A DNA stretch of 64,000 bases from Escherichia coli (GTDB lineage Bacteria; Pseudomonadota; Gammaproteobacteria; Enterobacterales; Enterobacteriaceae): the NCBI RefSeq assembly GCF_036507355.1, contig NZ_AP027877.1, one strand, 5' to 3'. Numbering within the stretch: position 1 is the stretch's first letter; every line of letters starts with the position of its first letter. A program made the position numbers and the translations under genes. The notes beneath the pieces are model-generated. The model had not been told where the DNA came from, did not search any database, and saw only the letters and a list, made by a program, of their open reading frames with translations. This document shows positions 19,641-20,041 of this stretch, in pieces.

Positions 19641-19700
19641 AAATGTACTAGCGTGAGGGTACATTATACCAACCGTACTAGCTTGCTGGTACAATATTCA
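19641..19700 (-). promoter_or_regulatory. candidate promoter/operator of cargo cluster
   Basis: minus-strand TATAAT (complement of attata at 19663..19668) about 25 nt upstream of the ATG; two ~30-bp direct repeats each containing GTACTAGC and GGTACA. Confidence 0.4.
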
Positions 19701-20041
19701 CACCAAATAAGTGATTGTTTGGCACACCATCAAAGCGCAGCAGTAAGGAGCGCCTCGGCACTGGGAACAGTGTTCGGGGTTTTCTTTTAGGGCCAGCAGA
19801 GATGTAAGGTAAATCGTGGTGTAGGTGATATCAGATGAATCGGCGATAACCCGAAAACGGTTAGCAAATGTCAGTAGCTGATAAGGTATGAAATAGTAAG
19901 CAAGCGAACCATTCGTAGGGGTAATGTCAGGGTAACGTAATGGTGATATCAGGGTTATCTTAGGGAAGAGGTTAGGTTGGGGTCAGCAAAATGGTAGGGC
20001 ATTATGAGCCTACATTCTTCTTACCCCAAGATGCGGGGGAA

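Follow-up and report, generated by a model that had tools for sequence, protein, structure and literature searches.

Between a gene (20042-20497, − strand) whose 151-aa product has an N-terminus resembling a signal peptide and a three-gene small (late) cluster (19638-18648, − strand), the window (the whole 64-kb stretch of Escherichia coli DNA analysed here) contains a 403-nt interval (19639-20041), and the question is what resides there. An earlier note, made from the letters alone, had described these two flanks, had seen no ORF of note and many short recurring motifs, and had offered a packaging site, a regulatory RNA or protein-binding arrays as candidates. The flanks are as that note said, and the interval indeed lacks any credible ORF, with stops filling all six frames. 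A tblastx comparison with the gene cassettes that relatives carry at the same position found no protein remnant, and a tRNA/tmRNA search found none. We propose, with moderate confidence for the two parts taken jointly, that the interval consists of two unrelated conserved elements, a small RNA (sRNA) gene and a cis-acting DNA repeat element, both of which are unannotated in RefSeq.

The host island and its replication origin

The interval is part of a PICI-like phage-satellite island of ~8 kb, which is inserted between dinD and yicC; these two genes are adjacent in genomes without the island, and sister islands are sited at ubiV/yhbW. Based on Pfam and PHROG matches the island genes comprise int, AlpA, a toprim primase, a DUF927 helicase and three small late genes, and the island has int, alpA and primase/replicase in one orientation at a fixed chromosomal insertion site, as Gram-negative PICIs do. 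Repeats resembling GTAGGGGTAC are present at its right end. The segment was found in 4 of the 5426 complete E. coli genomes, making this a rare island; a scan of species-representative genomes added just two loci, and the satellite family is small, with 20 protein clusters. The first late gene encodes a 134-aa protein with an HTH_17/AlpA-like motif (PrtN/AlpA/excisionase-type winged helix), a homologue of which is labelled 'pyocin activator PrtN family' by NCBI. The protein itself has no sequence match in Pfam, NCBIfam or PDB, and its AlphaFold model shows a helix-helix-strand core at a pLDDT of 54, too poor for a fold search.

Directly downstream of the DUF927 gene lies an origin-like region (20553..20668), composed of three TGTCCC(A/G)T iterons, a 45-bp AT-rich spacer and four inverted GGGACA iterons, and a second Rep-iteron cluster is located at 25047-25160. 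These real origin iterons, which lie outside the interval and had been overlooked in the earlier note, follow the type of Rep protein, the iteron being GTCCTACA in the related island L007 and TACYCCACCT in L008.

A putative small RNA gene facing the late operon

The left 90 nt, which had likewise been overlooked, form a separate and much more conserved element. Based on its fold and a covariance model we assign to it a putative sRNA gene of ~90 nt (19699..19788, + strand), antisense to the island genes. It is preceded by an extended −10 element (TGn), TGGTACAAT, at 19687..19695 on the + strand, which was read from the sequence and as a putative promoter would start transcription at ~19701-19703. 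The predicted RNA opens with a 5' hairpin (19703-19722); a single-stranded linker (19723-19752) then leads to a terminator hairpin (19753-19779), the loop of which is GGAA (GNRA), and to the U-run TTTTCTTTT (19780-19788), all on the + strand. Its minimum free energy is −31.7 kcal/mol (z = −2.25). A stable terminator hairpin and U-run thus lie on the strand that would be transcribed, and in the relatives a terminator scanner called the hairpin and U-run solely on the strand antisense to the genes. With regard to the promoter, type-B islands have TGATATTAT at the position aligned to the −10 element, so that TGnTAnnAT is kept in types A and B, and types C and D have just A/T-rich −10-like hexamers upstream of the sRNA, where the promoter is weak or uncertain; there is no recognisable −35 element, and a two-hexamer scanner makes no call.

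All related islands keep this sRNA architecture in the same position. They fall into five sequence types, the 12 variants of which all fold into a hairpin, a single strand and a GNRA-loop terminator, at −27 to −37 kcal/mol. Over 19704-19789 identity is 82% to islands that in the flanking coding sequence reach just 71%. Within the linker, the single-stranded core CCATCAAAGCGCAGCAGTA (19727..19745, + strand), which is the proposed seed, was unchanged in the four sequences first aligned, and CATCAA(A)GCGCAG is retained in types A-C. At the level of alignment columns the sole compensatory pair is in hairpin 1 of types A and B, where A-U is replaced by G-C; in types C and D the sRNA stems are wholly replaced. 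A covariance model built from the type A and B sRNAs alone (R1) gave one full-length match per island, at the syntenic site and on the same strand (109 bits in the window), and matched nothing else in the 64-kb window. On the other types it gave E = 8e-4 for type C, 0.005-0.018 for C' and 0.09-0.85 for D. The structure is therefore conserved through sequence change, both across the five types and in the transfer of R1 from A/B to C and D. Rfam gave no family for the sRNA: a whole-window scan at gathering thresholds, and scans of this region at E ≤ 10 in the window, L007 and L011, had matches at chance level only; the C4/P4 CI antisense RNA family was rejected, with no covariance-model match at E ≤ 10 in the same three regions.

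The late operon starts close by, on the opposite strand. Its predicted promoter, the extended −10 element TGGTATAAT (19663..19671, − strand), diverges from that of the sRNA, and all seven island types compared have either TGnTATAAT or TAGTACAAT equally far from the ATG. It is followed by a short 5' UTR with the Shine-Dalgarno sequence GGTGA (19636-19632) and the startcodon ATG (19626-19624) of the 134-aa gene (19624..19656 as a whole, − strand), the ATG being the conserved Met in column M5 of alignment A2. We propose this leader as the sRNA target, since CACCATCAAA (19725-19734) in the linker is a near-repeat of CACCATTAAA (19633-19642) in the leader, which makes the sRNA complementary to the mRNA of the 134-aa gene. 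In five of six other island types the duplex between the linker and its own leader has a predicted energy between −18.5 and −27.8 kcal/mol, which 0-3 of 500 shuffles reach, whereas the window's own duplex is weaker (−18.0 kcal/mol, reached by 74 of 500 shuffles), with a C.A mismatch degrading the pairing of seed and leader. The predicted duplexes cover −33..−1 relative to the ATG in all types and always pair the GGUGA Shine-Dalgarno sequence, while the paired words vary by type (CCATCAAAG, AGCGTAGT, or ACCATCA plus AGAATGACG). The conserved single-stranded seed is thus complementary to the translation-initiation region, more weakly so in the window itself. A genome-wide duplex scan for sRNA targets did not single out the leader, and was too noisy to rank targets.

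Two tandem direct repeats of 30 bp (GTACTAGC-N7-GTACA...; 19645..19704, 77% identity in a repeat search), which the earlier note had also missed, each hold one of the two divergent −10 elements. By their sequence they look like an operator, and GTAC-N10-GTAC units were found again in L011, L007, L015, L016 and L018. They enter into a different reading of the left element, in which there is no RNA gene: the hairpin would be a terminator or insulator against read-in transcription, and the core and its repeat in the leader would be a pair of operators at which a DNA-binding protein, perhaps the 134-aa winged-helix protein or else a factor of the helper phage, regulates the late promoter. The spacing would suit this, as the core is located approximately −70 to −90 from the late promoter start and the repeat is in the leader, a plausible two-operator or looping geometry, and the operator-like repeats overlap both −10 elements; the poor −35 elements of the sRNA and the silence of the two-hexamer scanner are also in its favour. 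However, the repeated word changes with island type and always includes or abuts the Shine-Dalgarno sequence, which is explained by RNA pairing and not by a fixed protein site. The 5' hairpin located 6-8 nt past a −10-like hexamer and the strand-specific U-run are also kept in five types even though the stems are replaced, and the terminator faces away from all island genes; as an insulator it would terminate only transcripts starting in the ~90 nt upstream of it, or antisense transcripts through the late operon. We consider it unlikely that the left element consists of operator sites only.

The sRNA gene is our preferred reading, and of the candidates that the earlier note had offered a regulatory RNA is supported for 19699-19788 only, by comparative evidence: the conserved architecture, the transfer of the model, and a target complementarity that co-varies. 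This unannotated sRNA gene probably silences the neighbouring 134-aa regulator gene. The sRNA would be transcribed from its own promoter, away from the late-operon promoter ~25 bp off, and its ~30-nt core would pair with the first late gene's ~30-nt 5' UTR and Shine-Dalgarno sequence, which could block translation or destabilise the mRNA, so that the late module stays off until induction of the satellite. We infer the transcription of the sRNA, its pairing in vivo and the direction of regulation from these comparisons.

A phased repeat array and its possible roles

To the right of the sRNA gene follows a repeat module (19791-20001), of which the proximal half (19791..19913) contains the first copy of GGTGATATCAG (19824-19834), GATAA words and GGTTAGCAAATGTCAG (19859-19874). 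The distal half (19914..20001, + strand) consists of eight phased 11-bp units, CGTAGGGGTAA, TGTCAGGGTAA, CGTAATGGTGA, TATCAGGGTTA, TCTTAGGGAAG, AGGTTAGGTTG, GGGTCAGCAAA and ATGGTAGGGCA, and includes the second copy of GGTGATATCAG (19942-19952). The unit consensus is nnTnAGGGTAA, with TnAGGGTAA as its core, and the array is flanked by GTTAGCAA words. The motifs listed in the earlier note are all there: GGTGATATCAG occurs exactly twice, and an exact direct 11-mer repeat was seen in just 55 of 2000 dinucleotide shuffles of the 403-nt region; AATGTCAG also occurs twice (19867 and 19923), and what had been noted as 'GGTAA/GTAAGG units' is in fact one phased array. Tandem Repeats Finder (TRF) reported 19914-19955 with a period of 11 (3.4 copies) and of 22 (1.9 copies), and the base autocorrelation over 19905-20005 was 0.46 at lag 11 and 0.47 at lag 22, compared to 0.27 ± 0.05 for shuffles, none of 2000 of which reached these values.

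The module is also better conserved than its surroundings. Its proximal half is 95.9% identical to L016 and 89.5% to L018, and the array is 90-100% identical in these two islands, while the adjacent 134-aa gene is 73-77% identical. Words matching GTTAGCAA or TTGCTAAC are also found in L011 and L007. L016/17, L018 and L011-14 have, at the corresponding position, arrays of 2-4 units spaced by 11 bp that are oriented as in the window, and in one lineage (L007/9/10/19) the arrays at this position are inverted. The number of units varies, the array having 22 bp more in the window than in L018, and arrays of the motif recur in lineages that do not align. The earlier note would have counted a lack of conservation of the repeats in related islands against a function; they are conserved, which favours function. 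At the right edge of the module there is an imperfect inverted repeat (19977..20029, 17-nt arms, 82% complementary), which directly follows the 151-aa gene's stop codon and is part of that gene's cassette. This repeat lacks a U-run and is not kept as a hairpin, being disrupted by a change in L016 and missing in L018, which lacks the 151-aa gene.

Other E. coli matches to the array were solely to members of the same family, and the 50,697 phage records contained nothing similar when searched by blastn with 'distant' settings, using the whole segment and a 57-nt consensus array. An exact 18-mer had two matches in IMG/VR, which lacked flanking similarity and are attributed to chance. A degenerate three-unit pattern hit 50 IMG/VR loci, and a permuted control hit 15. 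The arrays at the 50 loci have mixed surroundings, following a VapE primase, next to DnaA boxes or ahead of an integrase; 11-bp arrays of this general kind often occur in phage contigs in unrelated settings, and these loci are generic iteron-like arrays which are uninformative on the function of the array here.

From the sequence comparisons the array is most likely a protein-binding DNA site, and a 'protein-binding array', another of the candidates first put forward, is the best reading of 19791-20001, given the 11-bp phasing, the variable number of units, the conservation of the motif and the flip in orientation. Because unit number, order and orientation vary, the array would work as DNA and not as RNA. 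Its 11-bp units would be phased with the DNA helix and be bound by a protein other than the satellite's Rep or AlpA. We rejected Rep iterons, as the motif is common to islands with DUF927 and with D5-like Rep proteins and the true iterons are at 20553-20668; AlpA as the binder, as the AlpA region differs between the window and L001 while the array is identical; and arm-type sites of the integrase, as it is the right-end repeats like GTAGGGGTAC that track the integration site, and not the array.

The distribution of the array bears on what the bound protein would do. The array is missing from all islands carrying a TerS-like (DUF5681) cassette (L002, L015, L003/4, L008 and L020), so that array and cassette are mutually exclusive at the same position, an observation based on ~ten lineages and on a slot which is a variable cargo hotspot. 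The assignment of DUF5681 as TerS rests on gene position and a few depositor annotations: homologues in phages are located at the genome start or beside TerL, and some are annotated as terminase small subunit. As the array fills the slot of the TerS-like cassette, and as the TerS-less islands have no other candidate site, the packaging machinery of a helper is what it would most likely recruit, and by elimination we tentatively suggest that the array is a pac/cos-type packaging signal. It is the mutual exclusivity at one locus that keeps packaging in play as a hypothesis. No known site was recognised: the lambda cosN query GGGCGGCGACCT gave five matches with up to two mismatches in the window versus 5.4 expected by chance, none of them in 19639-20041 and only one within the island (23019, two mismatches, in the toprim gene, at chance level), and the 19-nt cohesive-end sequence of P2/P4 had no match in the window at up to three mismatches. 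A pac site or TerS-binding array would be expected to recur within or next to a helper's terS; no similar sequence came up in the 50,697 phage records or in E. coli prophages outside the satellite family.

The array may instead be a regulatory array, bound by the 134-aa protein or by an inducer or late activator encoded by the helper, which is possible, if doubtful. Tandem, helically phased sites are typical of cooperative filaments of winged-helix proteins of the excisionase/Cox/Apl/PrtN type, and the PrtN P box and the sites of Xis, Cox and Apl are tandem repeats of ~10-11 bp; the adjacent 134-aa protein has its HTH_17/AlpA-like motif and a homologue named as PrtN family, and the array accompanies the late module across islands with different Rep proteins. 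Yet the 134-aa gene is also present in every island without the array, there is no promoter in a fixed relation to the array, the orientation and distance of which vary, and it lies ~250 bp upstream of the late promoter, past the sRNA gene. A role as accessory part of the replication origin, either as a site for a host factor or helicase loading or as a second cis region like P4 crr, appears quite improbable. It would fit L011 and L018, where the array is at most ~100 bp from the Rep iterons with no gene between, and the phage-contig arrays located after a VapE-type primase (L028) or right beside DnaA boxes (L036). Against this, islands whose Rep proteins and iterons are unrelated (DUF927 versus D5-like) have the motif in common, ET881 lacks the array although its Rep is 99% identical and its origin related (the same iteron family with a diverged spacer), a cargo gene separates array and origin in the window and L016, and the island already has its second Rep-iteron cluster at 25047-25160.

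Two further readings dispense with a bound protein altogether. It is highly improbable that the segment acts as a sense-strand RNA, i.e. as a C-rich, G-poor rut site or 3' UTR at which the early operon would stop ahead of the late promoter. The + strand has a strong excess of G (GC skew of +0.33 to +0.54 over 19750-20050), the − (sense) strand is correspondingly C-rich and G-poor, and no intrinsic terminator is found on the − strand downstream of the 151-aa gene; but in L007/9/10/19 the array is inverted relative to the genes, which gives a G-rich sense strand there, and what is conserved are phased DNA words and not composition. That the segment is a decayed remnant of a gene cassette of its relatives, or functionless low-complexity sequence arisen by chance, has hardly any probability left: relatives do carry genes at this position (DUF5681 plus small ORFs), but there is no nucleotide or translated similarity to these cassettes, coding DNA next to the segment is less conserved than the segment itself, the motif arrays persist in lineages which cannot be aligned, and the periodicity is far above that of shuffles. 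The conservation data largely refute it.

Relation to known satellite and phage systems

Phages and satellites have several immunity or antisense RNAs, such as the P4 CI RNA, the C4 RNA of P1/P7 (Rfam C4 family), P22 Sar and lambda OOP. The putative sRNA resembles these in being a short structured RNA beside the regulatory operon of a mobile element, and in having an exposed sequence whose complementarity to the ribosome-binding region or leader of its would-be target is maintained by co-variation. Unlike the cis-antisense RNAs Sar and OOP it does not overlap its target, although it is on the opposite strand, and unlike CI and C4 it has its own predicted promoter and terminator and is not processed from the target leader; it also matches no Rfam model. 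With regard to the array, the 11-bp iterons for ParR in plasmid R1 parC and the arrays of Xis, Cox, Apl and the PrtN P box similarly are direct repeats with ~11-bp spacing, variable in copy number and independent of orientation, but the array sequence is unrelated to them, and neither a partition gene nor a co-varying DNA-binding gene was identified in the island. The array also recalls the origin iterons of PICIs and SaPIs, in that its short repeats lie in noncoding DNA 3' of the replicase gene, whereas the real iterons, TGTCCCAT, flank the AT-rich core at 20553-20668 and co-vary with Rep, which the array motif does not.

The layout of int, alpA, primase/replicase and ori followed by a small downstream operon is shared with Gram-negative PICIs such as EcCICFT073, in which the determinants of packaging specificity, Rpp and a PICI-specific cosB, lie post-ori (Fillol-Salom et al., PMC6739421), in the region equivalent to the post-ori segment of the island described here. 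In contrast to EcCICFT073, this island is smaller (~8 kb) and has no lambda-like cosN or cosQ, and no homologue of Rpp or gpNu1 is detectable in it by sequence. SaPIs, as the work of Quiles-Puchalt (2014) is cited in PMC10803314, are either pac-type with their own terS or cos-type with a helper cos site and no terS. The sister islands would parallel this dichotomy, as they carry either a TerS-like (DUF5681) cassette or a noncoding repeat element at the same position, with the difference that the array has no counterpart in sequenced phages. For PICMIs no pac or cos site could be identified (PMC10803314). It is conceivable, though rather doubtful as a combination, that this family of minimalist enterobacterial satellites represses its late module by an anti-Shine-Dalgarno sRNA, an RNA-based immunity switch and independently evolved analogue of P4 CI, and that its TerS-less members have in the phased array a new type of packaging signal, which would give them direct use of the helper terminase.

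The array is a concrete, clonable candidate for the cis site used in the packaging of small satellites lacking a terminase, and the covariance model R1 could be used to annotate the sRNA. Control of Gram-negative PICI-like satellites has so far been described via proteins (AlpA, repressors and Rpp), and, if true, an sRNA masking the ribosome-binding site of the first late gene adds an RNA layer to this control.

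Island setting and composition of the noncoding interval

Chromosomal gene order in the E. coli window is recG-spoT-rpoZ-gmk-ligB-yicG-dinD ... yicC-rph-pyrE, with an island of ~8 kb between dinD and yicC in which all genes are on the - strand. These encode a P4-type tyrosine integrase (25182-26441), an HTH-like protein (24144-24995), AlpA (23857-24147), a hypothetical protein listed between AlpA and the toprim primase (22462-23388), a DUF927 helicase/replicase (20759-22480), a 151-aa protein with a signal-peptide-like N-terminus (20042-20497) and, separated from the latter by the noncoding interval, three small genes (134, 62 and 97 aa; 19638-18648), a layout which is that of a Gram-negative PICI-type phage satellite. 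The window also contains a JUMPstart/ops element at 35943-35981 (+; Rfam RF01707, 55 bits), an element to be expected ahead of the waa/rfa LPS core operon.

Related islands were collected by BLAST against E. coli genomes, via homologues of the neighbouring 134-aa protein, and as loci retrieved from IMG/VR, species-representative genomes and assemblies. The satellite family is small (20 protein clusters), with hosts in E. coli, Citrobacter, Kluyvera and Shimwellia plus metagenomes, and the exact segment is carried by just 4 of 5426 complete E. coli genomes. Six-frame and translated comparison revealed neither a credible ORF nor a protein remnant in the interval, in agreement with its description as noncoding in the earlier note, and the repeats named there are present (GGTGATATCAG and AATGTCAG, two copies each). 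When the region was dinucleotide-shuffled 2000 times, 55 of the shuffles also produced an exact 11-mer repeat. The 'GGTAA units' do exist and form a phased array with periods of 11 and 22 (TRF), and the autocorrelation of 19905-20005 at lags 11 and 22 was reached in 0/2000 shuffles; the + strand of the interval is strongly G-rich. The segment is real and functional, but is a composite of two parts, as island comparison divides it into an sRNA-like gene (19699-19788) and a repeat array (19791-20001). With regard to the three candidates initially proposed, the comparison of related islands supports a regulatory RNA for the left 90 nt only, and a protein-binding array for the remainder.

A putative sRNA and its proposed target

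We consider it likely that 19699-19788 (+) is an sRNA gene. It lies antisense to the island genes, and 19704-19789 shows 82% identity to other islands, with flanking coding DNA at only ~71%. The putative promoter has a TGn-extended -10 box (TGGTACAAT, 19687-19695, +), and a 5' hairpin (19703-19722, +) starting 6–8 nt past this box is followed by the invariant CCATCAAAGCGCAGCAGTA (19727-19745, +) inside an unpaired stretch of ~30 nt, and by a GC-rich GNRA-loop hairpin and TTTTCTTTT (19753-19788, +) as predicted terminator; in relatives, a terminator scanner called hairpin and U-run on this strand only. Architecture and position are common to all relatives (12 variants, five sequence types), and in types C and D both stems are fully replaced, but loop class, U-run and a core resembling CATCAA(A)GCGCAG are retained. 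A covariance model from types A and B alone recovered types C, C' and D, each at full length and on the corresponding strand of the syntenic site, and had no further match anywhere in the 64-kb window; column-level covariation within types A and B is thin, with a single compensatory pair. No Rfam family matched the putative sRNA in the window or in the regions from the related islands L007 and L011.

A divergent extended -10 box (TGGTATAAT, 19671-19663, -), kept in every island, is located ~25 bp away; transcription from it should start the late-operon mRNA ~30 nt before the 134-aa gene's conserved Met. On the DNA, the leader of this gene repeats the sRNA core almost exactly and in direct orientation, and the RNA would thus be complementary to the late mRNA. 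The paired words are CACCATCAAA (sRNA) and CACCATTAAA (leader) in the window, CCATCAAAGC in both for type B, AGCGTAGT in both for type D, and ACCATCA plus AGAATGACG for type C, and the predicted duplexes include the GGUGA Shine-Dalgarno sequence in every case. In five of the six non-window island types tested, 0–3 of 500 shuffles were as good as the cognate duplex; the window duplex is weakened by a C.A mismatch (74/500 shuffles as good), and a crude genome-wide duplex scan was too noisy for the leader to be ranked among targets. The 134-aa protein has an AlpA/excisionase/PrtN-type helix-turn-helix motif and a low-confidence AlphaFold model, and one homologue is labelled 'PrtN family' (NCBI). 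We propose that a trans-acting sRNA, encoded beside its target, would stop translation of this late regulator, comparable in action to P4 CI, P1 C4 and P22 Sar although not a member of these families; it would be a regulator of a familiar kind that lacks an annotation.

The sequence 19645-19704 consists of a 30-bp direct repeat in two tandem copies (GTACTAGC-N7-GTACA...), each bearing one of the divergent extended -10 boxes (late operon and sRNA), and resembles a shared operator; most relatives likewise contain units of the form GTAC-N10-GTAC. Further into the late operon, a GC-rich gap of 108 bp (18941-19049) separates the 62-aa gene from the 97-aa gene. A hairpin in this gap, GCCGCCGAAAGGCGG and then TTTCTTTT on the - strand, looks like an internal terminator.

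The phased repeat array

The array region (19791-20001) is 90–100% identical in the related islands L016/L017 and L018, in which the 134-aa genes are only 73–77% identical at the DNA level. Unit number differs, with L018 two units (22 bp) short of the window, and four units in L014 versus three in L011. Citrobacter-type islands (L011-14, and L086/L087 from E. coli) are unalignable here and contain GGTATGGGTAA AATCAGGGTAA TATCAGGGTAC in the orientation of the window, together with GGTCAGCAAATG and TTGCTAAC words; L007/9/10/19, which have a different, D5-like Rep, are also unalignable and contain GGTCAGGGTAA TGTCAGGGTGA and two GTTAGCAA words in inverted orientation. This flip excludes a reading as sense-strand RNA or rut site. 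On sequence comparison, the array is a conserved cis element specific to one satellite family, and quite probably works as a protein-binding site at the DNA level.

Other assignments were rejected. The array does not represent the Rep iterons, which vary with Rep type and sit at 20553-20668 (three repeats of the TGTCCCAT type on one side of an AT-rich core, four inverted repeats on the other). The sister island ET881 lacks the array, although its Rep is 99% identical and its ori related, with iterons of the same family. The array tracks neither AlpA, as the window and the related island L001 differ in the AlpA region, nor the integration site, which has its own arm-like repeats at 18570-18600. 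These repeats, within 18560-18610 near the right end of the island, are GTAGGGGTACATGGATTTACAGGGATTACAA and probably represent integrase arm-type sites; they are kept in dinD/yicC-site islands, with AAACCCAC-type repeats instead in ubiV/yhbW-site islands. A second Rep-type iteron cluster in the gap between int and the next gene (25047-25160; three TGTCCCGT-type repeats, a spacer and four GGGACA repeats) runs inverted relative to the ori-like cluster, a pairing reminiscent of ori and crr in P4.

A possible packaging role, and the late module elsewhere

A packaging signal, included among the earlier candidates as a pac/cos site, is our leading but tentative hypothesis for the array. All array-less islands (L002, L015, L003/4, L008 and L020) have a DUF5681 gene and a 54-aa ORF in the same slot (DUF5681 at 9473-9916 in L002, and also seen in L015, L003 and L020). 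In phages, genes for DUF5681 homologues open the genome or adjoin the large terminase (TerL), with a small-terminase annotation in some cases, which points to DUF5681 as a TerS family. As outlined in PMC10803314, pac-type SaPIs have terS and cos-type SaPIs a cos site instead, and the array-or-DUF5681 alternative in the sister islands is the same choice. This likeness, and the finding that in TerS-less islands no conserved noncoding DNA other than the array is left without an assigned role, are indirect evidence for the packaging signal. Searches with lambda cosN gave only chance-level matches inside the island, the P2 cos sequence is absent from the window, and no similar array was found in sequenced phages or E. 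coli prophages. The array/DUF5681 slot is a cargo hotspot. The main rival explanation is that the array provides regulatory sites for a winged-helix protein, while a function as an accessory of ori is less likely.

In IMG/VR contigs, 11-bp phased arrays with an AGGGTnA core were found at 50 loci, versus 15 for a permuted control. The arrays at L021-L070 are perfect 11-bp tandems with a T.AGGGT.A core, on contigs with a GC content of 0.27-0.61 and several at contig ends; their surroundings differ, and include sites that follow a VapE primase, adjoin DnaA boxes or precede an integrase. Because of these heterogeneous contexts, the arrays are of a generic, iteron-like kind and do not form a single family.

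Finally, the same late module, consisting of DUF5681, a 52-aa ORF, the sRNA and the 134-aa gene, is present in L020 (a 13-kb Logan contig of SRR26673762) and L008 (a 34.6-kb IMG/VR contig). These elements also have genes for ParA and for an RHH protein, plus a weak tape-measure-like match, which suggests that the late module may circulate in plasmid-like or phage-like elements besides the islands.
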